From sequence record NC_073081.1: DNA of 44,887 nucleotides; one strand, given 5' to 3'. The notes beneath the pieces were generated by a model. That model was not told where the DNA came from. It ran no database searches and saw nothing but the letters and a program-made list of their open reading frames with translations. Position 1 is the stretch's first letter. Each line of letters opens with the position of its first letter. Origin of the DNA: Escherichia phage vB_EcoS_Sponge. The translations under genes were made by a program, and so were the position numbers. This document shows positions 1 through 18,924 of this stretch, piece after piece.

Positions 1-16
1 ATTGGAGAATACTACA

Positions 17-379
17 ATGGCAAAAGCACCACTCTTCACACTTGACCCTAAGCCGACCTTTAAGCTGCAGATTGAGATCCCGCGCCCCGGTGAAAACGAA
101 CCGGGAAAAATGACGTTTACCGTGCGCCACCGCCCGATCGACGAATTTTCGCAGACCATGCAGGATACTGAGCGCAAGTTGTCGGAGTATGACGACAATG
201 ACCCTGACGGCTTTAACGTTATGGTCGAGGCCATAATGCACGTCGCTGAAGGCTGGAATCTGCCAGATGAATTTAACGCGGAGAACGTCCGCCGCCTGGT
301 GGTTAACTACCCTCGAGCGTTCGGTGTGTTCCACACGTCGTACTATCTCGAACTGATGGGATTGCGTGAAAAAAACTAA
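17..379 (+). CDS. tail assembly chaperone (gpG-like), 0-frame product
   Basis: ATG 17 (GGAG at 3-6) to TAA 377-379; acidic ~120-aa protein directly upstream of tape measure gene and, across the window junction, downstream of major tail gene. ORF track start at 2 is an in-frame TTG. Confidence 0.6.
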   Translation: MAKAPLFTLDPKPTFKLQIEIPRPGENEPGKMTFTVRHRPIDEFSQTMQDTERKLSEYDDNDPDGFNVMVEAIMHVAEGWNLPDEFNAENVRRLVVNYPRAFGVFHTSYYLELMGLREKN

Positions 380-693
380 TTGAGGCGGCGCGACGCTTTT
401 ATGGCCCGCCGCCACCCTCCGAAGATTTAGCCGCGAGTTTATGGGGGGCGGCCCCTGAAGACGTTTGCCCCCCGGTTGCACTATGGCCCGACAACGCGAA
501 GGTAGTCGCAGTCTTCACAGATTGCGCCACGCAATGGCGCACCGGATTCGGTGGCGCATACGGCATCGACTACGGCGTACTGGAATGGCTATTTAAGATG
601 CACGGCATCGAAAACGCGCAACGCGCGTTTAAAGATATCAAGCTAATGGAACGCGTTGCGCTGGATGAAATGGCGCGGCAGAACCCCGCATAA
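17..693 (+). CDS. tail assembly chaperone G-T fusion via programmed -1 ribosomal frameshift
   Basis: Slippery heptamer A_AAA_AAC at 370-376 immediately before the 0-frame stop; -1 frame then open 107 codons (KKLIEAARRF...EMARQNPA) to TAA 691-693. Matches the conserved G/G-T arrangement of tailed phages. Confidence 0.55.
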
Positions 694-697
694 CGGA

Positions 698-955
698 GCG
701 GGACAGGCGGGACGTCCCGTTTTGTCCCGCACCTCTAAAACTGCATATTTACTCACCACAATTGCATAAATTAAAAGCGGGACAGGGGTGCTGTCCCGAT
801 CTGTCCCACCCCCAAAATGTGAATGTCTATTCAGTTTTATTGCATAAAGTAAGCGGGACAAAAAGCGGGACAGAATGAGGCGGGACAAAGCGGGACAGCA
901 CCCTGTCCCCGCCAGTGCTGCCGCGGGTTTTAGCCGATCGGGACAGGCGGGACAA
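698..955. repeat. iteron cluster A: at least 7 exact GCGGGACA octamers (698, 777, 853, 865, 880, 890, 948; inverted copy 723-730) interleaved with TGCATAAA boxes
   Basis: Read directly: gcgggaca copies at listed starts, gggacgtccc palindrome 709-718, tgcataaa at 763 and 841; non-coding gap between G-T stop (693) and tape measure start (1077). Confidence 0.8.
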
Positions 956-957
956 AG

Positions 958-1013
958 CCCAGTCTTTCAGACTAGACGGGGGTCAATGGCCCCCCTCGTC
1001 TGAGACTGAATAA
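958..1013. repeat. 56-bp conserved double-hairpin core, copy A (identical to 29166-29221)
   Basis: cccagtctttcagactagacgggggtcaatggcccccctcgtctgagactgaataa; contains agtct-ttc-agact hairpin and a G5/C6 stem hairpin; exact second copy in island B. Confidence 0.85.
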
Positions 1014-1076
1014 GGTTTGTTTTAAATTCGCTGATACAATGACCGACGGCAACTGCATAAAAAGGGGGACTGCATA

Positions 1077-3719
1077 ATGGCAGATCAGGCAGCGGGCATC
1101 ACGCTCAAGGCGGACGTCGCGCAAATTAAAACGGCGAATACTGTGCTGGACACATTTGCGCAGAAATCCGAGAACACAGAACAGAAAGTCAAAAAATTAA
1201 ACGACACCCTCGGCAAGTCGAAAAAGGTCACGGGTGACGCCGCTGGCGGAATGGAAAAGTTAGCGACTGAATCTCAGCGTGCCGCCGACGGCATGACGAA
1301 ACAGGAGCGACTCGCCAGCCGATTAGGCATGTCGACCAAAAACCTGGGATTCGCATCGCGGAACGCCGCATTCCAGTTACAGGATATCGCGGTTACGCTT
1401 GAGATGGGTATGCCGGTGCACCGCGTCATGCTTCAGCAGCTACCACAGCTAACCGGCGCATTTGGCGGACTAGGTAACACGCTGCGTTATGTTGCAGGCT
1501 TCCTCGGCCCCGTAGGGATCGGCCTTGCCGCCGTAACGGCGACGTTAGGCGTGGGTGTTGCAATTACGTCCCGAGCAGAGAACCAGGTAGCGGCGCTTAA
1601 TAAGACGCTGGCACTTTCCGGTAACATTTCCGGCCTGACGGCAAACCAGATCCTGGTGCTGTCCGAGAACGCCGAGCGCATGGGCGGGTCATTTCGCAAG
1701 ACGCGTGACACAATCCAGGCGCTGGCGGCGGCGGGTGTGAAAGCAGGTGGTGACTTCGGCGCATTGGCTAAGGTAGTTAATGACTTTGCGAAGGTGTCCA
1801 GCCAGCCGATCGAGGATGTGGTAGCGGCGGTGGCGAAGCTGTCAACCGACCCCGTTGGCGGACTGCGTGCGCTGGCGGATAAGTATCACGTCGTAAACGA
1901 AGCGCAGATCCAGCAGGTACAGTCGCTCGTTGATGCGGGTCGTGAGACAGACGCAGTTGCGTTGGCTAACAAAACAGCCGCTGCGTCGTTCACCAGCATG
2001 ACCAATGAGATCAAGGCGAACATGGGTACGCTTGAGCGATCTATGAACGTCGTCACATCGGCAGCCAAATCAATGTGGGATGCCATCCTGGATGTGGGCC
2101 GCGCGCAGTCCTCCAATGAATCCGAGATGAAAGCGCGCGAATCACTGCAGCGGCTGACCACGGCTTACTATGCCGAGATGAAAGCGGTAAACGCTGCCGG
2201 TGGGGTAATGCCTGAAGCGCAGAAAGCACGTATTAACATGCTTTACAGCGAACTGGTCGCCCAGGAAAAAGTGGTGGCGTCGCTCACCCTGCGTAACCGT
2301 GCTGAGCGAGACAACGCCCGCGCCGCAGACGAATCCGCAAAGGCGAACGAGGAGGCCAACCGCACTGCCCGTGACCGCGCCGCGTTCGAGAAGGAATACG
2401 CCACCAACGCTAAGAAGCGCGCCGACGAGATCGCCCGCCTCAATTTGCTGAATAAGCGCGGCGTTATTGATGAGAAAGAACTAGCCGAGGCGGTGAAGCA
2501 GGTAAACGAGCGGTACAAAGACCCAGCCCCGAAAAAGGCCGCGGCTGTTCGCGTGGATGCCGGTATGAAAATGCTGGAAGTCGCACGGAGCGAACTGGCC
2601 CAGCTTCGAGAATCCGGCAAGCAGATCGAAGCCAACGCGTCTACGCAGACCCGCACGCAACGCGCTCAAGCGGCCTTAAACAAGCTGATCGCCGACAATG
2701 AGCAGTTAATCGCTGCGAGCAAAGAAAGAGCGCTAACGGCAGCAGAAAAGCAGCAATTAGTCGAGTTCGGGCGCGTGAAGGAAGTCCGCGAGCAGATCGT
2801 CGAAGAAGCCAAATTGCTGGATGCGAAAGAGCAGCAGGTTAAGGCGCACGCGCAGATCGATGCCTTCGTTAAGAACCAGAACGCCGAACTAAAAGCCACC
2901 GCCGCGGGGTATGCGCTTTCCACTCGCGAAGCGGCAAACCTGCGCGAAGAATTGCAGCTAATTGACCGCCTGAAGCGGGTGGGCGCTAACGATACCGATA
3001 TTGATCTGGCGGTGTCTAAGCTGCGCGAAGTGCAGGAAGCACAGACCGGTGCTAACGCCTCGCTATGGGATGGCTTCAGCCGAGGGCTTAAGGATAGCGT
3101 GGATGATATGGGTAACGGCTATACGCAGATGGCGTCACTCACAAAATTCACGTTCGGCGCTATGCAGGACACGATGAACGAGTTTTTCGAGACTGGCAAG
3201 CTGAACGCAAAGGATATGGTTAAGTCCATTCTGAGCGAATTAATCAAGCTGGCTACATCGCAGGCGTTCAAGTCCATCGTTAGCGCTTTCGGTGGCGACG
3301 GCGGCAAAAACGGATTGTTCGGCGCTATCTTCTCCGGCCTCACTAAGAATGCGGACGGCGGAGCGTACGCAGGGGGCAATCTCGCGGCCTATTCGGGGCA
3401 GGTGGTAAGCCAGCCAACCTTTTTCAGTTATGGCGTCCAGGCGTTCGCTAAGGGCGCAGGATTGATGGGCGAGGCTGGTCCAGAGGCCATCATGCCGCTG
3501 AAGCGCGGGCCGGACGGGAAACTGGGCGTTGCCGCGTCTGGCGCAGGCGGTGGTATGGTCGTGACGACTAACGTTTACACGGGGACCGGTAAAACGGATA
3601 CCAGTGTCAGCGGGCCGGATCCCCGTACCGCGCAGGCGTTCGGCAAGCAAATCACCGAGGCGGTGAAGGCCGAGATCGTGAAGGCGACGAAACCGGGTGG
3701 TGTACTTTACAAACGATGA
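1077..3719 (+). CDS. tail tape measure protein
   Basis: 880-aa ORF immediately after the G/G-T chaperone; Ala/coiled-coil rich with hydrophobic segment (GFLGPVGIGLAAVTATLGVGVAI) and Gly-rich C-terminus; AGGGGGA SD before ATG 1077. Confidence 0.85.
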   Translation: MADQAAGITLKADVAQIKTANTVLDTFAQKSENTEQKVKKLNDTLGKSKKVTGDAAGGMEKLATESQRAADGMTKQERLASRLGMSTKNLGFASRNAAFQLQDIAVTLEMGMPVHRVMLQQLPQLTGAFGGLGNTLRYVAGFLGPVGIGLAAVTATLGVGVAITSRAENQVAALNKTLALSGNISGLTANQILVLSENAERMGGSFRKTRDTIQALAAAGVKAGGDFGALAKVVNDFAKVSSQPIEDVVAAVAKLSTDPVGGLRALADKYHVVNEAQIQQVQSLVDAGRETDAVALANKTAAASFTSMTNEIKANMGTLERSMNVVTSAAKSMWDAILDVGRAQSSNESEMKARESLQRLTTAYYAEMKAVNAAGGVMPEAQKARINMLYSELVAQEKVVASLTLRNRAERDNARAADESAKANEEANRTARDRAAFEKEYATNAKKRADEIARLNLLNKRGVIDEKELAEAVKQVNERYKDPAPKKAAAVRVDAGMKMLEVARSELAQLRESGKQIEANASTQTRTQRAQAALNKLIADNEQLIAASKERALTAAEKQQLVEFGRVKEVREQIVEEAKLLDAKEQQVKAHAQIDAFVKNQNAELKATAAGYALSTREAANLREELQLIDRLKRVGANDTDIDLAVSKLREVQEAQTGANASLWDGFSRGLKDSVDDMGNGYTQMASLTKFTFGAMQDTMNEFFETGKLNAKDMVKSILSELIKLATSQAFKSIVSAFGGDGGKNGLFGAIFSGLTKNADGGAYAGGNLAAYSGQVVSQPTFFSYGVQAFAKGAGLMGEAGPEAIMPLKRGPDGKLGVAASGAGGGMVVTTNVYTGTGKTDTSVSGPDPRTAQAFGKQITEAVKAEIVKATKPGGVLYKR

Positions 3720-3753
3720 TAAAATGGCCCTCACTACAACGTGGGGGCTTTTT

Positions 3754-4353
3754 ATGTCACAAGGTACAATCACACTAACGAAAGGAAGTAAGACCGTCAC
3801 GGGCGCGGGAACGGCGTTCCTTAGCGAGATCGGGAAGGTACTCGTATTCGCCCGCATCGACGGCAACGACTACACCGGCAAAATTGCGGCATTCAACTCG
3901 AACACGGTCATTACTCTGAAAGATAACTGGGCTGGGCCAACGAAATCCGGTGCGACATATGAGCTAATCGAAGCACACGACCCGCGATCAAACGAATGGC
4001 CCTATTACTGGCACATGCAATTGCAGGGCGGTGGCGACGTGCAGTTAGCTTTCCGGTCGGAGGAATTGCAATTCGGTAATGGCTACGGACAGAACATCGC
4101 GGACGGCCCGAACGCCGAAACGAAACAGTTCCCCGTGCAATTCGTCGGGCTGACTACGGACAAGTGGTGCAACCCTAAACTGGTTTACAACTTCCTTCGC
4201 GGGCACTTCGTCAAGCCGTTTGTCGTCACCGCGCCGGATGGCGAAACAGGTTTATTCGTGGTCGAGCGTTCGAGCTTGTCGTACACGGACAACGGACACC
4301 TCACGGCAACCGTATCTGCCACCCTTAAGACTGCTATTGGATTCGTAAGATGA
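3754..4353 (+). CDS. minor tail protein (gpM-like position)
   Basis: ORF following tape measure; ATG 3754 preceded by GTGGGGG; an in-frame ATG at 3724 is also possible. Function from synteny only. Confidence 0.45.
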   Translation: MSQGTITLTKGSKTVTGAGTAFLSEIGKVLVFARIDGNDYTGKIAAFNSNTVITLKDNWAGPTKSGATYELIEAHDPRSNEWPYYWHMQLQGGGDVQLAFRSEELQFGNGYGQNIADGPNAETKQFPVQFVGLTTDKWCNPKLVYNFLRGHFVKPFVVTAPDGETGLFVVERSSLSYTDNGHLTATVSATLKTAIGFVR

Positions 4354-5138
4354 ATAAACTTTATCGCGAGGCTACGCGCTTTGACCCATCGGGTCGCGTT
4401 CGCCTGATTCACATTGACGCGCAGGACGTGGAACCAGGCGACGGTGCGATCGGCGCGGGCCATCACTATTTCCACTACTGCTTTATTCCGCACACTGCCG
4501 AGGATATTGCTGCCGCCGGTGGTGACGAGGATAAGCTAAAACCTAAATCAATCTTCTTCGGCGGGCAGGAGTTCGAATTTTGGCCCTTCGATTTGTCCGG
4601 CCTTAACTTCTCCACATCGACGGCGGCAGAACCGCAACTAACAATCGTCGATATTGGCGGCATAATAACCCGGCTGTCGCTGAACCACGACCAGCTACTT
4701 GGCGCGAAGGTTGAGATCATTGATACGTTCGCGAAGTTCCTGGATAACGGGACAGATCCAGACCCGACGCAGAAACGAATTCAGGAGTATTACATCGACT
4801 CCCAGGTGGGCCGAAATCCGGGCAAGCAAATTACCTTCGCACTATCCTCGCCTGCGGATATGGAAGGGCAGGTCGTTCCCCGTCGCCAAATCATGAATAT
4901 GTGCGAGTGGGCGCTCAACGGGAAGTACGCCAGCGGGGACGGGTGCACCTGGAACCTTGCGAAGCCTGGTATAAAGTATTATGACGAGCGAGGTAATGAA
5001 GTCATCGCGATGAACATGGACCGATGCGGCGGCTGTTTGTCAGACTGTTATCTTCGATTTGGGCAAGGGCTTGCGGACCCTAAAGCGGCGGTGCTGGACT
5101 TCGGCGGCTTTCCGGGGTCCAGATTAATTAAGGGGTAG
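4350..5138 (+). CDS. minor tail protein L-like
   Basis: ATGA overlap with upstream gene; 262 aa with Cys-rich C-terminus (CEW...GCTW...DRCGGCLSDC) as in lambda gpL; synteny H-M-L-K-I-J. Confidence 0.6.
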   Translation: MNKLYREATRFDPSGRVRLIHIDAQDVEPGDGAIGAGHHYFHYCFIPHTAEDIAAAGGDEDKLKPKSIFFGGQEFEFWPFDLSGLNFSTSTAAEPQLTIVDIGGIITRLSLNHDQLLGAKVEIIDTFAKFLDNGTDPDPTQKRIQEYYIDSQVGRNPGKQITFALSSPADMEGQVVPRRQIMNMCEWALNGKYASGDGCTWNLAKPGIKYYDERGNEVIAMNMDRCGGCLSDCYLRFGQGLADPKAAVLDFGGFPGSRLIKG

Positions 5139-5140
5139 TT

Positions 5141-5881
5141 ATGTTAACGAAAAAGGTTAAAAGCGATATCGCCGCACACGTCGCGGCGTGTCTGCCGGAA
5201 GAAGCCTGTGGCCTGGTTGTCATGGTGGGTCGTAAGCAAGTGTTCGTCCCATGTCTGAACGTATTCGAAGACCCGACCGGCGTGCGCTCCCGCAAAGACG
5301 CTTTTACGATTAGTGATATGGCCTGGATGGATGCCGAGGATATGGGCGACGTCGTGCGCGTAGTCCACTCACACCCGGGTCAGCGCGAGTTAACCCCCTC
5401 ACTGGGCGACGTTAACGGATGCAACGGCAGCGGCGTAGTGTGGACCATCACTAACGAATATGGCGACTTTATTGAGATTGACCCGGAAGACCCGCCGCTG
5501 GTAGGCCGCCGATTTGTTCTCGGAATTACGGATTGTTACGGCCTCGTCATGGACTGGCACAAAAAGCAGGGAGTAAATTTGCCAGACTTCCGCGTGCCGT
5601 ACAACTGGTGGGAGACCGGGGAGAACCTGTACATGGATAACTGGTACGGTGCAGGCTTCAGGGAATGCGAGGAGAATACGCCTGGGGCGATGGTCATCAT
5701 GCAGATTAGCGCGCCAGTGCCTAACCACGCCGGGATATTCCTTCCGGGCAACCAACTCCTACACCATATCTACGGCAGTCTGTCGAGCGTGATACCCTTC
5801 CGGTCAGGATTTTTCCGGGACAATGTGGTTAAATGGGTACGTCATAAAGACCTACCGGGGAATATAACAGAATGGCAATGA
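5141..5881 (+). CDS. tail assembly protein K-like (MPN/JAB + NlpC/P60 domains)
   Basis: JAMM-like motif HSHPG...SLGD and NlpC/P60-like Cys/His (DCYGLV ... NHAGIF); position before I and J. Confidence 0.7.
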   Translation: MLTKKVKSDIAAHVAACLPEEACGLVVMVGRKQVFVPCLNVFEDPTGVRSRKDAFTISDMAWMDAEDMGDVVRVVHSHPGQRELTPSLGDVNGCNGSGVVWTITNEYGDFIEIDPEDPPLVGRRFVLGITDCYGLVMDWHKKQGVNLPDFRVPYNWWETGENLYMDNWYGAGFRECEENTPGAMVIMQISAPVPNHAGIFLPGNQLLHHIYGSLSSVIPFRSGFFRDNVVKWVRHKDLPGNITEWQ

Positions 5882-6489
5882 CCACATTTAAATTATACGG
5901 CGTTTTAGGACGTCGATTCGGTAAAGTGCATAAGCTGGACTGCTTCACTCCGGGCGAGGGTATCACCGGCCTGTGCGTGAAGTTACCCGGCTTACAGGAC
6001 TTTCTAATGTCGGCCCACCTGGACAATATGATGTTCAAGGTGCGCAAAGGCGACCACACGATGACCGGCTATGATGAGCTGGGCGAGTTCCACGGCAACC
6101 GCGTCGTTACCATCGCTCCGGTTATGACGGGCGCAAAAAGAGGGTTGGGACAATTGCTGGCGGGTGTCGCGATCGTAGTGGCGTCGTTCTATACGGGCGG
6201 ACTTGCTACTGCCGCTTTCGGGGCTTCGGCTGCAACCGCTGCCGCTATCGGGACGGCGACGTTTTCGTTCGGGATGTCGATGGCGCTGGGTGGCGTTATG
6301 CAATTGCTGTCGCCACAACCGAAAGGATTGCAGACAAGGCAGGACGTGGATAACAAAGCGTCGTACGCGTTCGGCGGGCCAGTGAATACAACAGCGCAAG
6401 GCACGGCGCTTGGTGTATTATGGGGCGAGCGTGAGATCGGCGGCGCTATTATTTCAGCCGGAATAGTAACCGAGGACTTGAACGAATGA
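5872..6489 (+). CDS. tail assembly protein I-like
   Basis: 205-aa ORF overlapping K end and J start (ATGA at 6486); Gly/Ala-rich hydrophobic C-terminus; synteny. Confidence 0.55.
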   Translation: MAMTTFKLYGVLGRRFGKVHKLDCFTPGEGITGLCVKLPGLQDFLMSAHLDNMMFKVRKGDHTMTGYDELGEFHGNRVVTIAPVMTGAKRGLGQLLAGVAIVVASFYTGGLATAAFGASAATAAAIGTATFSFGMSMALGGVMQLLSPQPKGLQTRQDVDNKASYAFGGPVNTTAQGTALGVLWGEREIGGAIISAGIVTEDLNE

Positions 6490-9400
6490 CGATTATCTAC
6501 GACGTCACAGGGCATAAAGGCGGCGGCGGCAAACAGCACACCCCACAGGAGACGCCAGACAGCCTGCATTCGCTGGCTAAAATCCGCATCTTGCTTGCGC
6601 TGGGGGAAGGGGAATTCGAAAGTATTACCAGCGCCAGCGAATTGCGGCAGCGTGTTTACTTGGATGGAACGCCGATCCAGAACGCTGACCTGTCCGAAAA
6701 CTTCCCTGGCGCGCGTGTGGAGTTCCGCCCTGGCACACAGCACCAGGATGTGATCCACGGATTTTCAGCGGTGGAAAGTGAGCAATCTGTCGGCGTAAAA
6801 CTGGAAAACGGCACGCCGTGGGTGCGCCAGATTAACGATACCAGTCTGGACGCTGTTCGCATTCGCATCGGCATTCCAGCCCTGTACACTAACGAAGATA
6901 ATGGCGACCTGGTGGGCGGGCGCATCGACTATAAGATAGTTGTGTATACGGATAACGCCGACCCGCGTGAGTTCAGATTCGCCGCCGTTGGTAAAACAAT
7001 GTCGCTATATGAGCGCGACCACCGCATCGAATTACCTCCGAACGTTAACACCGGCTGGCGCGTGGAGGTGCACCGCATAACGGCAGACTCCACATCGGCG
7101 AAAGTGGTTAATGATATCCGGGTGCAGTCCATCACTGAGATTATTGACGCCCGCCTGCGTTACCCGCTAACCGCGCTGTTGTTTGTGGAGTTCGACGCCA
7201 AAGCGTTCCAGAACATCCCGCGCGTGTCCATCAAGTGCAAAGGCCGCAAAGTTCTAATACCGAACAACTACGACCCGATTAACCATACCTATTCCGGGGA
7301 CTGGGACGGCACGTTTAAACGCGCATGGACGGATAACCCTGCGTGGCACTGGTACGATATTTGTATTACTGAGCGCTTCGGCCTCGGTCGGCGTATCAAA
7401 CCGCAAATGTTAAACCGGTACGCGCTCTACCAGATTTCGCAGCGCTGCGATCAGTTGGTCAGCGACGGCAACGGTGGTCGAGAAATCCGCTTTAAGAATG
7501 ATATGTACATCCAGTCGCAGACAGACGCCTGGACCGTGCTTAAGGATTTGGCTGCCATCTTTGCTGGGATGACCTGGTGGGGCAACCAGATGTTGAATAT
7601 CGTCAGTGACCAACCGGTCGCAGCAGTGTCGCACACTATCACCAACGCCTCGGTAATTGATGGGCGATTCGACTACGCATCTGGTAGCCAGAAAACGCGC
7701 TATTCCACATTCGCGGTAGCATACGGCAATCCGAAAAACCACTATGAAGATGCTATCGCAACGGGGCAACGTGTCGAACTGGTACGCCGCCATAAGATTA
7801 ACCGTCTTGATATTACGGCGATCGGCTGTACGCGTGAATCTGAAGCGCAACGCCGCGGGCACTGGGCGCTAATTTCCAACCAGCTTGACCAGCAAGTTAG
7901 CTTTAAAGTTGGCATGGAAGGGTTATTCTTTATTCCAGGTAGCGTAGTCGCGATCGCGGATACAAACATTTCTGGCGGTTTTGAGACGCGCGGCGGTCGG
8001 CTGTTGTCGGACCCCGGAACGCGTACCGTGCTGAACACGGACAGCGAAATCACATTCCGCCCTGGCGATAAGTTCCTGGTGCGCACCGATAGCGGTAATG
8101 TGGAGACTCGCGAGATCGCCAGCGTCAACGGCAACAAGGTAACGCTAAAAACCGCACTGGACGCCAACCCTATTCCTGACCAGCCGTTTTGCGTTGACGG
8201 GGATGATATCCAGTTGCAAAAATTCCGCATCACCGATCTGGAATATGACGACTCTACGAGCACTTTCTCGGTGCGCGGGATTGAATATAACGATAGCAAA
8301 TATGATGCCGTTGATAATGGCGCGCGCCTAGACCCGGGCATCTTTACACAAGTGCCGGACGGTGTAATGAAGGGGCCGGAATCCGTGACTATAACTCCGT
8401 CGCAGATTTCATCGCAAGGCCAGCTAATCACCAACGTGGATATTGTTTTCCCGCCGGTGAAAGATGCCGTGGTGTATGAAATCCAGTGGAGGCGTACTAG
8501 CCTGCAGAATATGGAAATCCAGTGGGGTAACGACTGGGTGAATATCCCGCGCACGGCGTCGAATGGGGCGCACATCCCCAACGTGTTCTCCGGTAACTAC
8601 CAGGCACGCGTCCGCGCGATCGGTATGGGTGAAATCTCGTCCCCGTGGGTGTCGTCACCCATCACGCCGATCGAAGGTCGCCTCGGTGGGCTTAATGCGC
8701 CAATCATCACCAACGCGATTTCAGGTTTGCACCAGATCCTATGGAAGTGGAACCACAACAACGCCGCGACGGATATCTCCTACACAGAGCTTGAAGTGCG
8801 CAAGACGGGCGAAACGGAATGGAAATTCCTGTCCAACGTCCCATACCCTGGGGCAGAGTATGCGCAAACGTCGCTGGAGTTCGGGATTTACCAGCAGTTG
8901 CGCGCCCGTGTGGTGGATAAAATCGGCAACCGGTCGGACTGGTCGGCCCCGTTTGAAGGGCAGGTGAGTGACAAAGTTGACGAGTACATGAAGGGGCTTG
9001 AGGACGAGTTCTTGACTTCCGAGGATGGTAAACGCTTCCAGGAAGCAATCAACACGATCCCGCAGGGTATTTACGAGGCGATGCTCACCGACGCGCAGCA
9101 ATTGTTCAACGCCCGCGCCGAGTACAAGGGGATTTATGCGGAAATCTCGGTCGCGTATAACGTGGCGGCGGACGCCCACAAGGCGGTCGCTCAACTGGAG
9201 ACGTTGATCGGCACGCGACTTGATGACGCGGAAGCTGCGATCCACACGTTGCAGACCGCGCAGAGCACACAGGAACAAGCGTTCGCCCAGTATCAGCAAA
9301 CTGTTGCCGCTAAGTTCGGGGAACAGGAAGCCGCCATCCAGCAGGTACAAACGGCAACCGCAGACGTGGCGGGAGCGCTGGCGGAATATAAGACCCAGGT

Positions 9401-9905
9401 CGCGACACAGTTCGGTCAGCAGTCCGCCGCTATCGAGCAGAAGATGACGTCCTCGTTTAACCACTCTGGTGGTAGCGCCACGTATAGCCTTAAGGCGGGC
9501 GTGACGTATAACGGGACTTACTATGATGCGGGTATGCAGCTTTCCGTTGTGACGTCTGGCAACGCGGTTAAATCGCGTATTGCGTTCAAGGCGGACCAGT
9601 TCTACATCATGCACCCATCTAATGGGTCGCTTTCGTCCGCGTTTATTGTTGACGGTGGTCAGGTGTACATCGACACCGCCCGCATCAAGAATGCGTCCAT
9701 TAACTTTGCGCAGATAACGGACACGTTGCAGTCCAACAACTACGACGGCAGTACTCGAGGATGGCGCTTAGGTAAGGATGGAACGTTTATCAACCTGGGG
9801 ACTGGAAGCGGTGGTGGTACAAAGCAGACCAACACCAACTACAGCGTTAAAGACGCGAACGGTGTTTTACGCGTGCAAATTGGCGAGCTTACGGGTCGCT
9901 GGTAG
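6486..9905 (+). CDS. central tail fibre / host specificity protein J-like
   Basis: 1139-aa ORF; N-terminus HKGGGGKQHTPQETPDSLHSLAKIRILLALGEGEF resembles the gpJ N-terminus; follows K and I genes; terminator downstream. Confidence 0.85.
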   Translation: MTIIYDVTGHKGGGGKQHTPQETPDSLHSLAKIRILLALGEGEFESITSASELRQRVYLDGTPIQNADLSENFPGARVEFRPGTQHQDVIHGFSAVESEQSVGVKLENGTPWVRQINDTSLDAVRIRIGIPALYTNEDNGDLVGGRIDYKIVVYTDNADPREFRFAAVGKTMSLYERDHRIELPPNVNTGWRVEVHRITADSTSAKVVNDIRVQSITEIIDARLRYPLTALLFVEFDAKAFQNIPRVSIKCKGRKVLIPNNYDPINHTYSGDWDGTFKRAWTDNPAWHWYDICITERFGLGRRIKPQMLNRYALYQISQRCDQLVSDGNGGREIRFKNDMYIQSQTDAWTVLKDLAAIFAGMTWWGNQMLNIVSDQPVAAVSHTITNASVIDGRFDYASGSQKTRYSTFAVAYGNPKNHYEDAIATGQRVELVRRHKINRLDITAIGCTRESEAQRRGHWALISNQLDQQVSFKVGMEGLFFIPGSVVAIADTNISGGFETRGGRLLSDPGTRTVLNTDSEITFRPGDKFLVRTDSGNVETREIASVNGNKVTLKTALDANPIPDQPFCVDGDDIQLQKFRITDLEYDDSTSTFSVRGIEYNDSKYDAVDNGARLDPGIFTQVPDGVMKGPESVTITPSQISSQGQLITNVDIVFPPVKDAVVYEIQWRRTSLQNMEIQWGNDWVNIPRTASNGAHIPNVFSGNYQARVRAIGMGEISSPWVSSPITPIEGRLGGLNAPIITNAISGLHQILWKWNHNNAATDISYTELEVRKTGETEWKFLSNVPYPGAEYAQTSLEFGIYQQLRARVVDKIGNRSDWSAPFEGQVSDKVDEYMKGLEDEFLTSEDGKRFQEAINTIPQGIYEAMLTDAQQLFNARAEYKGIYAEISVAYNVAADAHKAVAQLETLIGTRLDDAEAAIHTLQTAQSTQEQAFAQYQQTVAAKFGEQEAAIQQVQTATADVAGALAEYKTQVATQFGQQSAAIEQKMTSSFNHSGGSATYSLKAGVTYNGTYYDAGMQLSVVTSGNAVKSRIAFKADQFYIMHPSNGSLSSAFIVDGGQVYIDTARIKNASINFAQITDTLQSNNYDGSTRGWRLGKDGTFINLGTGSGGGTKQTNTNYSVKDANGVLRVQIGELTGRW

Positions 9906-9908
9906 TAT

Positions 9909-9927
9909 GGGGGCTTCGGCCCCTTTT
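9909..9927 (+). terminator. intrinsic terminator after J gene
   Basis: ggggc-ttcg-gcccc hairpin followed by TTTT directly after TAG 9903-9905. Confidence 0.6.
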
Positions 9928-9940
9928 AACGAGGTTATTT

Positions 9941-10243
9941 ATGGCATTCGGTATCGCAACGTGGGACGCGCAAGGACGCCCAAACAACTACGGCATTAAA
10001 CCGGTAAGCGTGATCGGAAGGATTCATCTTGCGGAAGGACAAAAATCAGGCGCATGGTCATTCCCTGTACCGGCGGGGATGAAGGTCGGATACGTGGTCG
10101 CACTGGATAAAGGCGCGGTCGGGCCAGGACGCAGAATAACCGCCAGCGGGAACACTATCACTGTTTCCGCGGCAAGTGCGGTGGGTGGCGGGGTTTACTC
10201 CGCATCTGAATGTGACGTTATTGTTTTTGTGGAGCGAGCATAA
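9941..10243 (+). CDS. hypothetical protein (tail-associated region)
   Basis: 100-aa ORF, ATG 9941 with GAGG SD; no recognisable motif. Confidence 0.45.
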   Translation: MAFGIATWDAQGRPNNYGIKPVSVIGRIHLAEGQKSGAWSFPVPAGMKVGYVVALDKGAVGPGRRITASGNTITVSAASAVGGGVYSASECDVIVFVERA

Positions 10244-10917
10244 TGGCTAATTACGGCGCGTTGATTGACTTACCAAACGGCAACCCGTTTATCACGCCAG
10301 AATCGACGCCGTTTTGTCTATTCCGCCGTGTGGTTGTTGGGTCTTCGGCTAACGGCACTGCGCAGTCGGCGGCTGCCGATATTAATTTGGGCGGTGACTA
10401 CCCTGCAATAGCGTTTGTGAAAACTACGCACACCACCCAGCCGACCGTCGTAGGGTCTTCTCGCGTTGGTAATGTGGTGAAGGTGAGCGCCAGCAATCCA
10501 TTCGGGCAAGGCTTCACGATGACGGCTTACATCTTTGCCATATTCCCACAGACCCTTCCGCGGTGGGGCTTCGCTATTTGGGATAAGACGGGGAAGCTAG
10601 TGCTTACTAATGAGAGTCGCGTACTAAGCGATTTAGTTACCGTCGGATCGCCAGGCGCTAACGGGGGGATTAACATTGACCAGACGCTAAATGGCAGCTA
10701 CGCCGTCGCTCCAGGCATATTGGGGTCTACGCTGATCCGGTTTTTTGTGCAGGGCCAGCCGCAAGTAATATCGGTAACGGCGTACACGGGGGCCAGATTT
10801 GATGGGTCACGAACGCGTATATCGGCAGCGTCGTCGGGGAACGCCACGGGGGATGTGGTGGGGTATACTAACAACGGCAACGCGATTATGGCGATTAACA
10901 CGGCCAATTATGATTGA
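10243..10917 (+). CDS. hypothetical protein (tail-associated region)
   Basis: 224-aa ORF, TAATG overlap with upstream gene; Gly/Ser/Thr-rich, no recognisable catalytic motif. Confidence 0.45.
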   Translation: MANYGALIDLPNGNPFITPESTPFCLFRRVVVGSSANGTAQSAAADINLGGDYPAIAFVKTTHTTQPTVVGSSRVGNVVKVSASNPFGQGFTMTAYIFAIFPQTLPRWGFAIWDKTGKLVLTNESRVLSDLVTVGSPGANGGINIDQTLNGSYAVAPGILGSTLIRFFVQGQPQVISVTAYTGARFDGSRTRISAASSGNATGDVVGYTNNGNAIMAINTANYD

Positions 10918-10920
10918 AGA

Positions 10921-10943
10921 AAGCCCCGAAAGGGGCTTATTTG
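10921..10943. terminator. bidirectional hairpin terminator between convergent genes
   Basis: aagcccc-gaaa-ggggctt stem-loop followed by TTATTT on + strand; stop of the minus lipoprotein gene lies in the 3-prime arm. Confidence 0.5.
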
Positions 10944-11155
10944 CAGGTTGTGCTTTTGAAATGGTCTACAGACACGTACTGGAAGTTGAACGGGTACCCA
11001 GCCCGGAGCATTTTGTGCCCGCTAACGTCTGCAACCCCAAACACCGGGACGGAATACTCCATACCACTATTCATATATGTCGCGTCGCAGATTTTAGACG
11101 GCATACCTGCACAACCAGACAGAAGAACCGCACAAATCATAATTAAAGTTTTCAT
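10937..11155 (-). CDS. small lipoprotein, candidate receptor-blocking superinfection-exclusion protein (Llp/Cor-like by position)
   Basis: 72-aa ORF on the opposite strand inside the tail module; signal peptide with lipobox LLSGC; strong SD (AGGAG) before ATG 11155. Confidence 0.5.
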   Translation of the reverse strand: MKTLIMICAVLLSGCAGMPSKICDATYMNSGMEYSVPVFGVADVSGHKMLRAGYPFNFQYVSVDHFKSTTCK

Positions 11156-11234
11156 GTTATCATCTCCTATATTTGGTTGAGTTTAGTATTACACCGCTCA
11201 ACCGGGATTGCAACCAATTTATGAGGATTCAGCT

Positions 11235-13319
11235 ATGGCAGCGGGTACACTATCCGTAACGAATAACAGCAAGGCGGTTGTCGGGGTAGGCACGACGTTT
11301 ACCGCGTTTAAAGCTGGCGACTTCTTAACGCTGGTGGTAGGACAAGTACCCTACACCGTAGCGATTGCGTCCATTGAAAGCAACACTGCTCTTACTCTGG
11401 TGCTGCCGTTCGACGGCCCAACGGCGACCGGCCTTGCGTGGGACGGCGTTAAGCGCGATACCATGTCGCTGGCAACGATGGGCGTAACGGTCCAGGCGCA
11501 GAAAGCATTACGCTTGATGATCGCAGATGAAAACAACTGGCGTGCAATCTTCGGCGACGCTGAAGAAATCACGGTAACGCTACCGAACGGGCAAGTTATG
11601 CAGGGCATGTCGTGGGGATATTTGTCCTCCTTGCTGAAGGAAGTAGACCCCGTTGAGATGCGCAACCTTCAACAACAGGCCGAGACGGCGAAAAACCAAG
11701 CTGTTACCGCTAAGGGGCAGGCAGAATCGGCGCGCGACGCAGCTAATACGGCGAAGACTGGGGCGGAGACGGCACGCGACCAGGCTAACAATGCGAAGAC
11801 CGACGCGCAGACCGCAAAAGGCCAGGCCGAATCCGCGCGCGACGCCGCTAACACTGCGAAGACCGGGGCGGAGAATGCCCGCAACCAGGCACAAGGCTAT
11901 CGTGACGAGGCTGAAGGCTTTAAAAACCAGATTAACCCTTCGCAGTTTATGCAGAAGTCGCAAAACCTGAATGACGTTGCCGATAAAGCGAAGGCCCGCA
12001 CTAACCTGGCGTTAAATCGTTTCAACCAGCCGCGCGCCGATTTAACCGAGGTGTACTCTAACGACGACCGTACGGGGTACAAGCTGATTGTAAAAGATAA
12101 CGGCGACTGGGGTGCGATGAAACACGATGGTAGCGCGAATATGGCGCTAAGCATCGGTTTTGGTGGTACTGGCGGCAAGACCGGGGCTGAAGCACGTGCG
12201 TCGCTGAACGTATTTAAACGTGACCGAACATCACTAGGAGAGAGAGATCTGGATACTATCGACGGCAGCGGCGACGGTCCAGGGGTGTATTTCCAGGCGT
12301 CGTCAGCCGCGGCAACGTTAGCGCGCCACTACCCGGAAGCGACAGCGGGGATGCTGGAGGTATTCCAGCACGGGGCAAATGGTGAGTCGGGGGCTATCCA
12401 GCGCTACACGCCGTTTACGATCTTAGCTATTGCGCCGGAAGGCAGCCAGGAATATGCGCGCGCGGGAAAAGGCACATTCTATGTGCGGTCGAAAAACGGT
12501 AACGCCCCTAAATGGTCGCCGTGGTTGCCGTTTCAGACTGGTCTTTATGGTGGCGTTGTCAGTTATCCGGGTACGCAGGAGCGCTCAAGCTGGACGGATT
12601 ATGTCAACGTACTCGCACAACAACCAAGCAGCATGGGGACGTATAACATTCGTTCAGTAGGTTGGGTGAATGCCATCTCATCCCGACACCGTAACGGCAT
12701 CGGCGATGGCCGCAATTACGGTGTTGTTTTTGAGGATGGGCAAATGGCGGCTACCCACTACAAAAACGTAACAGTAAGAAAACAGGTAGCTGGTAACTGG
12801 ATTAACCCCGTCACGTTATGGCATACAGGAAACACCACGGTTGACAGCAACGGCTTTGTGAAGCGCGCATCCCCAATCGTGAAGGTGTTCGGGACCGGTG
12901 ATTTCGAGACTAACGACGAAAGCGAAGGATGCAAGGTCGAGAAAGTAGGCGTAGGAGAGTATCTCATCACCGGATGTATGGCGCTTAACGCTGATCTGGC
13001 CTGGGGTGGCGTGCGTGGCGGTATTGAGGTGCCGAGGGATATTAACGGTCAGCCTATTTTGTGGGTGGATTATGAAGTCAACGCAGACGGTAGTCTTCTG
13101 CTTAAGACGTTCCATCGTGAACATCACGACGCGCCGGTGTTCGCACGTAATACGGTGCCGGGTTACTCAAACGGCGACCCTATTGATATTCCTAACGATG
13201 TTTTTGTGTCAGTGCGTGTGGACATGCCAGAAGATTCGATTTACAACGTACGGGAGCGTGAGATGCGAGCGATTGCTGAGGTTGAGTTAGCAACGGGGGG
13301 TAAGGTGACCGAAGAGTGA
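11235..13319 (+). CDS. tail fibre protein
   Basis: 694 aa from ATG 11235 (GAGGA SD); track start 11208 is TTG. Contains Ala/Lys/Gln-rich coiled-coil repeats (GQAESARDAANTAKTGAE x2) typical of fibre shafts. Confidence 0.7.
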   Translation: MAAGTLSVTNNSKAVVGVGTTFTAFKAGDFLTLVVGQVPYTVAIASIESNTALTLVLPFDGPTATGLAWDGVKRDTMSLATMGVTVQAQKALRLMIADENNWRAIFGDAEEITVTLPNGQVMQGMSWGYLSSLLKEVDPVEMRNLQQQAETAKNQAVTAKGQAESARDAANTAKTGAETARDQANNAKTDAQTAKGQAESARDAANTAKTGAENARNQAQGYRDEAEGFKNQINPSQFMQKSQNLNDVADKAKARTNLALNRFNQPRADLTEVYSNDDRTGYKLIVKDNGDWGAMKHDGSANMALSIGFGGTGGKTGAEARASLNVFKRDRTSLGERDLDTIDGSGDGPGVYFQASSAAATLARHYPEATAGMLEVFQHGANGESGAIQRYTPFTILAIAPEGSQEYARAGKGTFYVRSKNGNAPKWSPWLPFQTGLYGGVVSYPGTQERSSWTDYVNVLAQQPSSMGTYNIRSVGWVNAISSRHRNGIGDGRNYGVVFEDGQMAATHYKNVTVRKQVAGNWINPVTLWHTGNTTVDSNGFVKRASPIVKVFGTGDFETNDESEGCKVEKVGVGEYLITGCMALNADLAWGGVRGGIEVPRDINGQPILWVDYEVNADGSLLLKTFHREHHDAPVFARNTVPGYSNGDPIDIPNDVFVSVRVDMPEDSIYNVREREMRAIAEVELATGGKVTEE

Positions 13320-13324: not shown

Positions 13325-13348
13325 AGGGGCCGTGCGGCCCCTTTTTTT
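13325..13348. terminator. bidirectional intrinsic terminator between fibre gene and leftward operon
   Basis: aggggccg-tgc-ggcccct hairpin followed by T7 on + strand; convergent gene ends on both sides. Confidence 0.7.
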
Positions 13349-13922
13349 AGTTTGAGTTTTCCCAGTCCATTTTTCGCCGCACCAGCGGGCTTTCGTAATA
13401 TTCCTTACCGTCCACTTCCACCAAAGGCCAATCGTTCACGATCACGAATGGCTCCGCAATATCCTCGATCACGCCGCGCGCGCTATGTTGCCAGAACGAC
13501 ACCCCCACCAGAATAACACCGGCAACTCGACGAGTGAGATACTCGCGAGCGCAACGCGCCTCTACCAGTCCGCGACGGATGCCGCTGGTGGCTTTGACCT
13601 CATATGTCCATACGGCATCAATCATGTGTTCTTTGTAGTCGGGGCCGGACTTAACCTTGCGCTTGCCGACCATGATAATATCGCCGCGGTCGATAGTGTT
13701 AGCGCTAAACAGGCCAGTACGCATTAGCAAACCTTGTGGAATACAGCTACGCCCTCCCGCCTGCCCTTCGAGGTACATGCCTGCAAACATCTCGCCCAGC
13801 ACACCGACAAGACGGCTTTGCTTGCACGCGTCAGACTTGTATCGCCACTGGTCAAACTCGATGCTTGCTATCATTGCCGCCAGGTGGAATTGTTTACCCG
13901 ATATTTCATATTCGCCGTACAT
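13347..13922 (-). CDS. hypothetical protein with PD-(D/E)XK-like motif (putative nuclease)
   Basis: 191-aa ORF; segment SGPDYKEHMIDAVWTYEVK fits PD...(D/E)xK spacing; GAGGG SD. Confidence 0.4.
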   Translation of the reverse strand: MYGEYEISGKQFHLAAMIASIEFDQWRYKSDACKQSRLVGVLGEMFAGMYLEGQAGGRSCIPQGLLMRTGLFSANTIDRGDIIMVGKRKVKSGPDYKEHMIDAVWTYEVKATSGIRRGLVEARCAREYLTRRVAGVILVGVSFWQHSARGVIEDIAEPFVIVNDWPLVEVDGKEYYESPLVRRKMDWENSN

Positions 13923-13964
13923 TGTGTTGCCCTCATTGATGCGGGCCGAAGCCCGCGATTAGAG

Positions 13965-14486
13965 TTATTTAAGTGCGCCAGTCACCAGTGTTTTTTCCAT
14001 GTTACGGAAGTCTTCCGGCGTCAAGAGGATTTTAGATCCGTCTTCGCCGGTGAGTACGACCATAGGCTGTACGTCCTGATCTGCGATGCCAAAATTAGCG
14101 GCTTTAACCGTCTTGCCCTCAGATGAAGAAGGATGCCACGTCCCAGCGGAGGCGATGGGCCAACCTTTTAGGCTGTCGAATTGTGCTGCCGTTGTGTCGA
14201 TCTGAATCTCATCATGCACGGTCATGTAAGACTCGCCCAGCAGGGCGGCATACGCTACCAGGTCAACGATGTTATCTTCCTGGTGCTTACGGTGCTGGCG
14301 CACCAGCTTCAGGCAGATCAGGAAGGTCCAGGCTTCTTGCTCGGTAAGATCGCGCCCGGTAAGCGCGTTAAACACGGCGGCTACCTGTTTAGCGCTGCGT
14401 TCTTCTTTCGCGTTGTCATAGCCGTTTTCTTTCCCGCGCTGTTCCATAGTGGTGGCGGCGTTTTTGCAGTATTCGTATGCTTTCAT
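13965..14486 (-). CDS. hypothetical protein
   Basis: 173-aa ORF with AAGGA SD; no confident motif. Confidence 0.45.
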   Translation of the reverse strand: MKAYEYCKNAATTMEQRGKENGYDNAKEERSAKQVAAVFNALTGRDLTEQEAWTFLICLKLVRQHRKHQEDNIVDLVAYAALLGESYMTVHDEIQIDTTAAQFDSLKGWPIASAGTWHPSSSEGKTVKAANFGIADQDVQPMVVLTGEDGSKILLTPEDFRNMEKTLVTGALK

Positions 14487-14550
14487 GATGTTTTCCTTTT
14501 TAGTGGGAGGCGGTATTGCCTCCCGATGTGGTTAAGATACTGCAACCAAC

Positions 14551-15021
14551 CTATTGGTTGCGAGTGAATTTTGCAACGTTTATTGCGTAAATTTTCGGGA
14601 CTAAATCGCCGCACGCCCGACGAATTGCCGCGATGTTCTTCGGACAGTCTTCAATGATGACCAGTTCCGATACGTCCGCATAGCAGACCATTTTGAACAC
14701 AGCGCACGCCTTAAACTCTGGCGGCGGGGTGTCGTCCAGCATGTGGCGCATGAACAACCGGCCTCTAGGGAATACTTCCAATTGCTCGGCTGTGGTGCCC
14801 CGGCATTCTCGCTGCCGGTTGGTCAGGTACGCGATCTCGAAGCCTTGCTCTTTGTACATGGTCAGCAGCGGCAGCATATCCATGTTCAGATCTTCGCGTA
14901 CGTGCGCTCTGTGCCACTTCGCCCAAAAGGTGGATTTAGTTTTTATTCCCGGCACCAGGTCGGCGCGCGCATCGCTTGAACCGTTAATGACGCCATCCAA
15001 ATCACAAATCAGTAGTTTCAT
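14551..15021 (-). CDS. HAD-superfamily phosphatase (polynucleotide 3-prime-phosphatase / nucleotidase-like)
   Basis: N-terminal DxDGV motif (LICDLDGVI) characteristic of HAD hydrolases; GAGGA SD before ATG 15021. Confidence 0.6.
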   Translation of the reverse strand: MKLLICDLDGVINGSSDARADLVPGIKTKSTFWAKWHRAHVREDLNMDMLPLLTMYKEQGFEIAYLTNRQRECRGTTAEQLEVFPRGRLFMRHMLDDTPPPEFKACAVFKMVCYADVSELVIIEDCPKNIAAIRRACGDLVPKIYAINVAKFTRNQ

Positions 15022-15242
15022 TTTAATTCCTCAACCAAATCCGAACGAACAACTCTGGCGGAAAACTTGTTACACACAAGATGCCAATTTGCGGTTATGA
15101 CAAGCCAGCCGGTAAGGTCCAGACCCAGGATATATTCCGGACGTGACACTCGCTTCACACGATCGCGGCGTGGGTCGATGTTATAGTCTCTTTGCATTCG
15201 GTCTACTACCGCAGGGTCGCGGTCAACGATTAAGATATTCAA
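15018..15242 (-). CDS. hypothetical small protein (TTG start)
   Basis: 74-aa ORF; only TTG start at 15242, preceded by AAGGAG; overlaps the 3-prime end of the Dam gene by 20 nt. Confidence 0.3.
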   Translation of the reverse strand: MNILIVDRDPAVVDRMQRDYNIDPRRDRVKRVSRPEYILGLDLTGWLVITANWHLVCNKFSARVVRSDLVEELK

Positions 15243-16159: not shown

Positions 16160-16402
16160 TTATTTAATCTCCGTAGTGCGGATTTCCTTGCGAGGAATAA
16201 ATTTGCCGTCTTTCTCGACCCAGCAAGTTCCGTAACGCCATTGGGTATTACGACCTGTTTGCTCGGCATATACGGTCTTGCATTCGTAGCGTTCCGTGTA
16301 GTAAATAGCCGCGGTAGGTACGAAAATACAAACGGCAAACATGAGGGTGAGTATCACCCAAAATCGAAGGTCGCCGTCGTAGTCGAAAAATAATGATCTC
16401 AT
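16160..16402 (-). CDS. small membrane protein
   Basis: 80-aa ORF with one hydrophobic segment (WVILTLMFAVCIFVPTAAIYY); stop abuts next start. Confidence 0.4.
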   Translation of the reverse strand: MRSLFFDYDGDLRFWVILTLMFAVCIFVPTAAIYYTERYECKTVYAEQTGRNTQWRYGTCWVEKDGKFIPRKEIRTTEIK

Positions 16403-18920: not shown

Positions 18921-18924
18921 GTCT

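Follow-up and report, generated by a model that had tools for sequence, protein, structure and literature searches.

Tail gene junction and island A

We have analysed the complete genome of Escherichia phage vB_EcoS_Sponge (NC_073081.1; 44,887 nucleotides (nt), hereafter the window) with a focus on two related intergenic stretches, island A, which lies among the tail genes, and island B, which follows the gene of the helicase-primase. The phage is a Dhillonvirus of the HK578/SSL-2009a/SO-1 group of virulent Escherichia coli siphoviruses; its gene order is that of SSL-2009a, and phiEco273 is 99% identical to it over the region of interest. Island B stands at the head of the long plus-strand unit, directly after the helicase-primase gene, and island A is found inside the same unit (Table 1), where it fills the space between the end of T at 692 and the tape measure start codon at 1077. 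Both islands are arrays of short repeats (iterons), and we read island A, with a little more than even confidence, as a second copy of a replication-origin-type iteron array. Island A is non-coding; its sequences in different phages differ by insertions and deletions of one nt, so that no reading frame is conserved in it. The upstream neighbour T (378–692) is either left unannotated in public records or given as a separate small open reading frame (ORF), as in SO-1 and HK578.

Table 1. Coordinates of the features discussed (positions refer to the window unless another record or locus is named; AT, adenine plus thymine; aa, amino acids; HTH, helix-turn-helix)
Feature	Position	Strand	Remarks
Tail genes	1–13319	+	
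Chaperone G (tail assembly)	2–379	+	Pfam Phage_TAC_4, E=4e-23
T, -1 frameshift extension of G	open to 692, TAA 690–692	+	canonical slip site A AAA AAC at 370–376; upstream boundary of island A
Island A, non-coding origin-type iteron island	693–1076	+	
Iteron set 1, two direct and two inverted copies (>> <<)	698–730		GCGGGACA G GCGGGAC/GTCCCG TTT TGTCCCGC
Palindrome CGGGACGTCCCG, then TTTTG	708–719		within iteron set 1
AT-rich spacer 1, 72% AT	733–775		TGCATA boxes 741–746, 763–769
Iteron set 2 (> <<)	777–808		GCGGGACAGGGGTGCTGTCCCGATCTGTCCCAC
AT-rich spacer 2, 73% AT	812–852		TGCATAA 841–847; homologous to island B 29019–29060
Four direct GCGGGACA iterons	853–897	+	start-to-start spacing 12, 15, 10 bp
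Dyad GGGACAG-CAC-CCTGTCCC and GC hairpin CCCGC..GCGGG, then TTTT	890–930		inverted iteron 904–909
Two more direct CGGGACA iterons	939–954	+	right before the 56-bp palindrome
56-bp core, imperfect GC-rich palindrome	958–1013		CAGTCT..AGACGGGGG-loop-CCCCC..CGTCT..AGACTG, then AATAA
TGATACAAT, extended -10 consensus match (TGnTAnAAT)	1032–1040	+	37 nt upstream of the tape measure ATG
Shine-Dalgarno sequence AAAGGGGGA	1060–1068	+	
Tape measure protein gene	ORF 1077–3719, ATG 1077	+	downstream boundary of island A
Replication and nucleotide-metabolism genes	13347–26046	-	
Small HTH protein and 754-aa helicase-primase	26295–28899	+	
Helicase-primase, 754 aa	26635–28899	+	Pfam AAA_25 (RepA-like), E=2e-19; PHROG "replicative helicase-primase"
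Island B module	29019–29221	+	origin-type array 3' of the helicase-primase gene
Island B AT-rich TGCATA box, 74% AT	29019–29060		
Island B four direct iterons	29061–29105		
Island B inverted iteron copy	29114		
Island B two direct iterons	29147–29161		
Island B core palindrome	29166–29221		
Small genes, lysis, terminase, head and proximal tail genes	~29434–window end	+	unit runs on across the window ends into 1–13319
Arrays at replication genes without AAA_25	L057 8918–9171; L103 4350–4586; L058 5225–5452; L126 2288–2394		
Rhizobium phage 16-3 array	NC_011103 56245–56611 (L137 2745–3110)		unannotated in the record; CGTGACA is a one-base change from CGGGACA

The initial annotation of this stretch held that tail chaperone and tape measure genes normally follow each other without a gap. 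This is borne out by related phages that do not have the island: T and the tape measure gene abut in Pectobacterium phage Amona, in Enterobacter phage ATCEA23 and in two IMG/VR relatives (L172 and L173) of 40–44% major-tail identity.

The octamer GCGGGACA occurs 16 times in the window against 1.96 +/- 1.43 expected, a count reached in none of 100 shuffles. Thirteen copies lie in the two islands and the other three are scattered singly; seven plus-strand copies (698, 777, 853, 865, 880, 890, 947) and one minus-strand copy (723) fall within 694–1076. Arrays are confined to two places in the genome, 698–954 and 29061–29161. TGCATAA, which is present 14 times in the window (5.7 expected), is found in island A at 763, 841, 1054 and 1071. 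The seven octamers with their inverted copy, the four boxes, a palindrome and a 56-bp core had all been listed in the initial annotation, and we recovered every one of them.

If the GGGAC core is written > on the plus strand and < on the minus strand, the 14 sites of island A read >><< / ><< / >>>>< >>; a fifteenth GGGAC (1066) was left out of the count, being within the ribosome-binding stretch. In a genome with 45.5% AT, the two AT-rich spacers are flanked by opposed iteron sets in the order >><< (72% AT) ><< (73% AT) >>>>. TGCATA and TATGCA half-sites are found in the AT-rich boxes. The TGCATA boxes of spacer 1 are kept across phages and the sequence between them is variable, while iteron set 2 takes in other phages the >><< form of set 1. 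Spacer 2, at which the module common to both islands begins, is the candidate DNA-unwinding region; the iterons that flank it face away on both sides (<< on the left, >>>> on the right). The four direct iterons that follow are invariant across phages and in both islands, and the dyad behind them is in some phages replaced by GCGGGAC/GTCCCGC. A long-range inverted repeat (777–810 with 879–912; 34 nt, 79% complementary) also makes the region fold as one long hairpin on either strand.

Island B and its likeness to island A

The initial annotation had pointed to a 56-bp core (958–1013 and 29166–29221) and to a 25-bp unit (877–901 and 29085–29109) as common to both islands. The two identities stand, yet the extent of the likeness was underestimated: homology runs over about 200 bp at 80% identity (819–1016 against 29019–29224). 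The shared module has the same order in both places, namely AT-rich box, four direct iterons, inverted copy, GC hairpin, two iterons and GC-rich palindrome, and island A has two extra units upstream of it. Island B holds five copies of GCGGGACA in 29072–29161 and seven GGGAC cores (>>>>< >>), with an AT-rich box on one side only; from the stop codon of the helicase-primase gene it is 120 bp to the start of the module and 162 bp to the first iteron. In origin architecture island A is the more complete of the two, as opposed iteron sets border both of its 72–73% AT spacers on either side. Its place is among tail genes, not directly 3' of an initiator gene: island B is 16.7 kb upstream and the helicase-primase gene about 17 kb away.

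Conservation in Dhillonvirus and its relatives

About 150 of 157 Dhillonvirus records contain island A; those exceptions that we examined were partial records or had a match running to the record end. In IMG/VR, a 22-mer of the core was found exclusively in Dhillonvirus contigs, at the same two positions and normally twice per genome; two copies were counted in 13 of 15 such contigs, and the exceptions had a copy at the contig end or a divergent core. Islands A and B co-occur in every Dhillonvirus lineage examined, including the divergent lineage L168, whose helicase-primase and major-tail proteins are 69% and 74% identical to those of the window. The initial annotation had named a recent mobile insertion with no conserved counterpart as the outcome that would speak against it, and the records and the divergent lineage show the opposite. 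A mobile element would be expected in many contexts or in host genomes; we found no match to island A in 5,426 complete E. coli genomes and no phage position other than the same two, thus the island is not an actively moving element. One record (PQ843332, 88.6 kb) with five matching places looks like a dimeric Dhillonvirus assembly, and the records labelled "Acinetobacter phage NJ01" and, in one case, Campylobacter are Dhillonvirus by sequence, their host labels being doubtful.

The islands have been flagged before. The record of the Sodalis phage SO-1 (GenBank GQ502199) contains a "region A" at 11214–11597, between gp16 and the tape measure gene, and a "region B" at 40178–40657, downstream of the helicase/primase gene; the annotation describes the two as similar to each other and as made up of direct, inverted and palindromic repeats. 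They are the same element in a sister species, given as annotation only and without a link to the arrays of other phages. As this record has flagged both regions since 2009, the bare observation is not new. No paper describing the islands was found in the literature on the motif, on Dhillonvirus intergenic regions, transcriptomes and origins, and on SO-1 and HK578; a paper on Avs2/Ksap1 deals with a different locus.

Across the aligned distinct islands the iterons, the TGCATA boxes and both palindrome arms are essentially invariant, while the spacers and the loop vary freely. The core palindrome occurs with loops such as TCAATGG, TCAGCGG, GTATTGT and TCTGGCA, and in 17 core variants the arms are invariant and loop and bulge vary. 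No covariation was seen in these 17 variants (99.6% pairing), which makes the comparison uninformative on structure; in the divergent lineage there is a single compensatory change, AGAC...GTCT to GGAC...GTCC (A:T to G:C).

This pattern bears on a further explanation, that island A is a selfish or accidental copy of the origin region without function, which landed at a permissive intergenic position and was tolerated. In favour of it, sister phages do without the island, and the T/tape-measure junction takes foreign insertions in related phages. Nonetheless, the island is kept in essentially all Dhillonvirus genomes down to the lineage at 69% helicase-primase identity, its iterons, boxes and palindrome arms are retained while the spacers drift, which is a signature of purifying selection, and it is absent from the E. 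coli genomes and from other phage positions. We consider a functionless duplication to be barely plausible.

The junction itself deserves attention. In a relative of 60% identity (L171 4440–5060) it holds a terminator and two minus-strand ORFs and no array; in the divergent Dhillonvirus lineage (L168 4470–4990) island A is preceded by a strong terminator and, next to the island, a minus-strand gene of about 120 aa. Judged from these genomes, the T/tape-measure junction is a permissive insertion point and a hot spot in the wider clade. Lying in transcribed territory, island A might alternatively serve mainly as transcriptional punctuation, with a terminator or attenuator followed by a promoter. 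It would then divide the late operon, and the tape measure and tail-tip proteins would be made at a level different from that of the major tail protein and chaperones; in island B the shared module would have the corresponding function where the early and late regions meet. The CGGGACGTCCCG hairpin, with TTTTG behind it (708–724), comes straight after the end of T, and the equivalent site is annotated as a rho-independent terminator in HK578; a second hairpin with a T-run lies at 906–930, the predicted folding of the region scores well below that of shuffled sequences (z = -5.0 and -6.6), and the extended -10 element TGATACAAT ahead of the tape measure gene is invariant in 12 aligned sequences and in the five island-A sequences of a second alignment. 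In related phages with a strong terminator after T and genes on the opposite strand the operon is naturally broken there. On the other hand, our scan called no plus-strand terminator or promoter in either island (300–1400 was scanned for island A), TGATACAAT included, which the two-hexamer promoter scan did not call. The core palindrome has no T-run, and the divergent lineage, which keeps the iterons and the palindrome, has another sequence in place of TGATACAAT. Neither the need for 14 copies nor the arrays of the same 7–8-mer at the primase-helicase genes of unrelated phages, described below, would be explained. As the main role of the island, punctuation is in our opinion unlikely. A terminator or promoter function probably coexists with the replication role as a secondary one, since the tail operon thereby tolerates the insert.

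Arrays of the same motif in unrelated phages

The strongest support for an origin-type array comes from outside Dhillonvirus. We scanned IMG/VR for two adjacent iterons (CGGGACARARCGGGAC) and obtained many unrelated contigs besides those of Dhillonviruses. Dense arrays, defined as at least 6 CGGGAC per 250 bp, were present at 33 non-Dhillonvirus loci (6–14 CGGGAC per 250 bp) with a recurring layout of direct CGGGACA copies at 9–12 bp spacing, a GC-rich palindrome and inverted TGTCCCG. At 27 of these 33 loci there is a gene for an AAA_25 homolog of the window's helicase-primase, with the array placed -194 to +108 bp from its 3' end; homology was assigned by BLASTP (E 1e-5 to 1e-12) and hidden Markov model (HMM) search. 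Such a gene was found at only 6 of 58 loci without an array. The array-linked AAA_25 proteins have different primase modules (Prim-Pol, PriCT_2, Zn-ribbon plus Toprim). Four of the other six arrays abut the 3' ends of other replication genes of primase or superfamily 3 (SF3) helicase type (Table 1), whose products are of Zn-ribbon/Toprim primase types, of the composition Prim-Pol + D5_N + DUF5906 or, in one case, without a Pfam match. Of all the window proteins, just the helicase-primase has homologs at more than four array-bearing loci; the small HTH protein has none there. One iteron is thus shared by different helicase classes.

The word iteron, chosen in the initial annotation, is consequently the right one, given that arrays of the same motif abut primase-helicase genes in many unrelated phages. 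The same fact makes a second cis replication element the best supported of the three roles that had been put forward there. The islands of Dhillonviruses are a known kind of element, with a second copy in an unusual place. One further array-bearing locus of a different kind was noted: in a 37-kb viral contig (L119 1–1543) an array with 8 copies of CGGGAC lies beside a 41%-identical homolog of the window gene at 32725–33867, which encodes a 380-aa protein; SSL-2009a and PHROG both give it as "DNA repair exonuclease", and the SO-1 record has "putative transcriptional regulator".

A cultured phage with the same layout is Rhizobium phage 16-3. In the 360 bp after its primase/helicase gene p101 there are fifteen GCGTGACA/TGTCACG sites and the GC palindrome CCCCCACACTCCTTTAGGAGTGGGGG; elsewhere in its genome only scattered CGTGACA copies are found and no second array. 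Judging by position and layout, this array is likely the origin of a classic temperate phage. Against a CGGGACA-using protein to which it is 68% identical, p101 has 77–90% identity in most primase and helicase parts and only 31–43% in the last 130 aa, a pattern that would be expected if the C-terminus sets iteron specificity; it is a single comparison. As 16-3, with the same origin type, has one array, a second locus does not belong inherently to such a system.

The distribution of the arrays also helps in weighing two further explanations. The first is a structured RNA in the late transcript, one copy of which would stand where the operon begins (B) and the other within it (A); it would serve antitermination, processing or stabilisation or would be a sponge for a protein that binds GGA repeats. 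Both copies are oriented as the plus-strand late transcription unit, the predicted folding is strong, and the varying loop over fixed stems, together with the one compensatory pair change, is in line with an RNA hairpin. Yet the two strands do not differ in how well they fold, which is what DNA palindromes would give; in other phages the arrays go with the 3' end of primase-helicase genes irrespective of what follows downstream; and irregular spacing with mixed orientation of a 7–8-mer is typical of protein-binding DNA sites. No match in Rfam 15 reached the gathering score; at E <=1 there were only sub-threshold matches, to microRNA (miRNA)-precursor hairpins and one antisense-RNA family. The matches to plant and animal miRNA precursors arise from the 777–810/879–912 repeat and are artefacts. 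An RNA element seems to us very improbable. A CsrA-type GGA sponge was rejected for want of support from flanking sequence or position, and so were T7-type primase sites (GTC in TGTCCCG), a pac site and a CRP site.

The second is that island A binds the initiator without firing, either titrating it or pairing with island B (handcuffing), or that it blocks RNA polymerase or replication forks. In iteron plasmids such as P1, F and R6K, arrays outside the origin have a titration or pairing role, and P1 incA and F incC regulate initiation in this way. The motif of island A is that of B, the number of sites is higher (14 against 7), and all direct repeats of island A are co-oriented with transcription. 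However, negative control of copy number would be of little use to a virulent phage, the island contains a full origin module with AT-rich box and palindrome beyond the binding sites, and 16-3 does without a second array, which is therefore no general requirement. A mere sink or barrier is to our mind rather improbable, and the transcriptional roadblock suggested in the initial annotation is neither supported nor opposed by our data. A second cis replication element is thus still the reading that we prefer.

A candidate initiator

The helicase-primase gene directly upstream of island B encodes the candidate iteron-binding initiator, as its synteny with the arrays suggests. Its N-terminal region has a DxD motif of the archaeo-eukaryotic primase type (FFDIDR) and a Cys/His cluster, and at its C-terminus a winged helix is predicted (about aa 666–737, nt 28630–28845). 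In an AlphaFold2 model of aa 624–754, the helix-helix-helix-strand-strand (wing) unit has a predicted local distance difference test score (pLDDT) of 85–89. The best Foldseek matches in the PDB are all winged-helix proteins (MarR/MepR-DNA, ScpB, ORC, Rio2) and are weak (best E 4.7e-3, template modelling (TM) score 0.35–0.43); sequence and profile searches of the PDB gave no matches. In HK578, mutations that allow escape from OLD defence lie in the helicase-primase and in the promoter of its operon, and the authors interpret this as replication initiation (bioRxiv 10.64898/2026.07.10.737580). The neighbouring HTH protein (26295–26624, Sigma70_r4/HTH_23) was considered as the iteron binder and is less likely, as it has no homologs in array-bearing loci.

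Comparison with known replication systems

A close parallel is the pri-rep-ori system of Staphylococcus aureus pathogenicity islands (SaPIs; Rep1, Rep2, PriRep5), where the initiator is itself a helicase. SaPI Rep, which is sometimes fused to a primase, binds through a C-terminal winged helix to 6–12 short iterons immediately downstream of rep, the iterons being arranged as two opposed sets with an AT-rich region between them (PMC9371898). The Dhillonvirus module resembles it in having a helicase-primase fusion with a predicted C-terminal winged helix, 7–14 sites of 7–8 bp and opposed sets at AT-rich spacers. It differs in that its helicase is AAA_25/RepA-like and unrelated in sequence to the SaPI Reps, that it includes a conserved GC-rich palindrome and that a second full array lies 16.7 kb away in a structural operon; binding and melting, moreover, are here proposed by analogy.

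Two separate loci for one iteron are not without precedent either. Satellite phage P4 carries its octamer iteron TGTTCACC at ori and at crr (cis replication region), and the virulent siphovirus SPP1 reportedly has two far-apart origin regions, one of them in its late region, that are bound by the same initiator, as Pedre and co-workers are said to have found in 1994. The Dhillonvirus iteron, at two distant loci of one replicon, is in this respect like P4 ori and crr and SPP1 oriL and oriR. In P4, the alpha protein combines primase, helicase and a C-terminal winged-helix origin-binding domain in one polypeptide (PMC4234260, citing Ziegelin & Lanka 1995 and Yeo et al. 2002). Unlike the Dhillonvirus protein, alpha has a Toprim primase and an SF3 helicase and uses another iteron sequence; crr is 4.5 kb from ori in a small replicon and outside any tail operon, and we found no sequence homology to alpha. 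For SPP1, oriL-dependent theta replication has been described (PMC5737612). In this phage the origin-binding protein G38P is separate and the helicase G40P is loaded by G39P; repeats and proteins are unrelated to those of Dhillonviruses.

The palindrome may have its counterparts elsewhere. The pRN1 protein ORF904 (prim-pol + helicase) uses a stem-loop origin just 3' of its gene, which works when moved to another place (PMC4234260). RSF1010 RepA is the founding member of the AAA_25-type helicases, and the plasmid's primase starts on hairpin-forming inverted repeats (PMC8567376); its oriV system comprises the RepA helicase, the RepB' primase and the ssiA and ssiB hairpins. By analogy, the 56-bp palindrome could play a role equivalent to the pRN1 stem-loop or the RSF1010 hairpins. 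Nevertheless, pRN1 has no iterons and an SF3 helicase, and RSF1010 has a separate iteron-binding protein, RepC, with 20-bp iterons.

A second origin in the tail operon?

Taken together with these systems, the arrangement suggests a mechanism in which the helicase-primase would act as a self-loading initiator in the manner of SaPI Rep/PriRep and P4 alpha. Its C-terminal winged helix would bind the iterons, and oligomers assembled on opposed iteron sets may melt the adjacent AT-rich spacer and/or extrude the palindrome, after which the helicase would load and the fused primase begin synthesis. Island B, at the canonical origin position, would fire as the primary origin, and island A would be a second origin or a cis-acting partner, perhaps comparable to P4 crr or SPP1 oriR. 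Why the second array should lie among tail genes may be explained by the T/tape-measure junction being a permissive break in the tail operon of the clade; because the insert brings the promoter-like TGATACAAT and keeps the ribosome-binding site of the tape measure gene, tail gene expression would be preserved.

Several points weigh against this interpretation and should be kept in mind. We infer both the binding and the origin activity of the islands. GC skew gives no origin signal, as it mirrors gene orientation, with switches at about 13.3 and 26 kb. The first iteron of island B comes 162 bp past the stop codon, and this island has one inverted copy only. The palindrome arms, apart from the one compensatory change, are invariant, by which a structure is neither supported nor refuted, and the winged-helix fold matches are weak (E 5e-3 or worse). 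A homology between the Dhillonvirus C-terminal domain and the W..FY...KKAFxRA tail of the array-bearing AAA_25 proteins was not detectable (hhalign probability 1%); with no profile link between the C-terminal domains, the binder is deduced from synteny and fold prediction. The identity of the binding domain is uncertain also because the same motif lies 3' of replication genes without AAA_25. Finally, we expected arrays with the helicase-primase homologs of Jersey-like phages and Kagunavirus, and no CGGGAC array follows the gene in these closest homologs (43% and 34% identity, respectively) or in a metagenomic relative at 46% (L136), which has GTTGGCAGC-type repeats after the gene instead. Since the nearest homologs have no arrays, the CGGGACA module looks as if it was acquired in the Dhillonvirus lineage at both sites.

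The third role considered in the initial annotation, a packaging-related site, found no support: no evidence for it was obtained, and the terminase genes lie about 5 kb from island B and about 10 kb from island A.

A wider generalisation may be drawn, which we offer tentatively, as possible rather than probable. Arrays of GCG(G/T)GACA with a GC-rich palindrome would be a widespread origin type that goes with primase-helicase genes (Prim-Pol/PriCT/Toprim; AAA_25/SF3) from the Dhillonviruses of E. coli to Sinorhizobium phage 16-3, and Dhillonviruses would be two-origin virulent phages whose second, architecturally more complete origin lies inside the tail operon. In the literature that we searched, neither a description of the GCG(G/T)GACA motif family nor a mapped replication origin for Dhillonviruses was found.

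If the origin reading is correct, Dhillonviruses, which are common E. coli phages in BASEL and other collections and are used in work on defence systems and therapy, receive a sequence-defined prediction of where and how their replication starts. OLD and Lamassu are reported to sense origin hairpins, and two palindrome-bearing iteron islands would be obvious candidate triggers for both. A dense GCG(G/T)GACA array 3' of a primase-helicase gene could serve in annotating origins of uncultured phages. Moreover, a second origin in a late structural operon would offer a compact system in which replication initiation and transcription meet on one 383-bp DNA.

A second dispersed motif

Besides the iteron, a second motif, ATTGGTTGC(C), is dispersed over the window, with 27 matches at <=1 mismatch against 12.3 expected, mostly as intergenic pairs. 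Sites lie at 26070–26105, 28911–29008, 29282–29290(-), 29372–29411, 16458–16483(-) and 14542–14561, and further ones at 23035–23059, 32531–32566(-), 39985–40007(-) and 11210–11218(-). Two copies at 29376–29410 overlap a promoter-like pair, TTGCAC-17-TATATT, upstream of the first gene after island B. The motif is probably the operator of a phage regulator, for which the HTH protein (26295–26624) is a candidate. It also flanks the inserted gene in L168.

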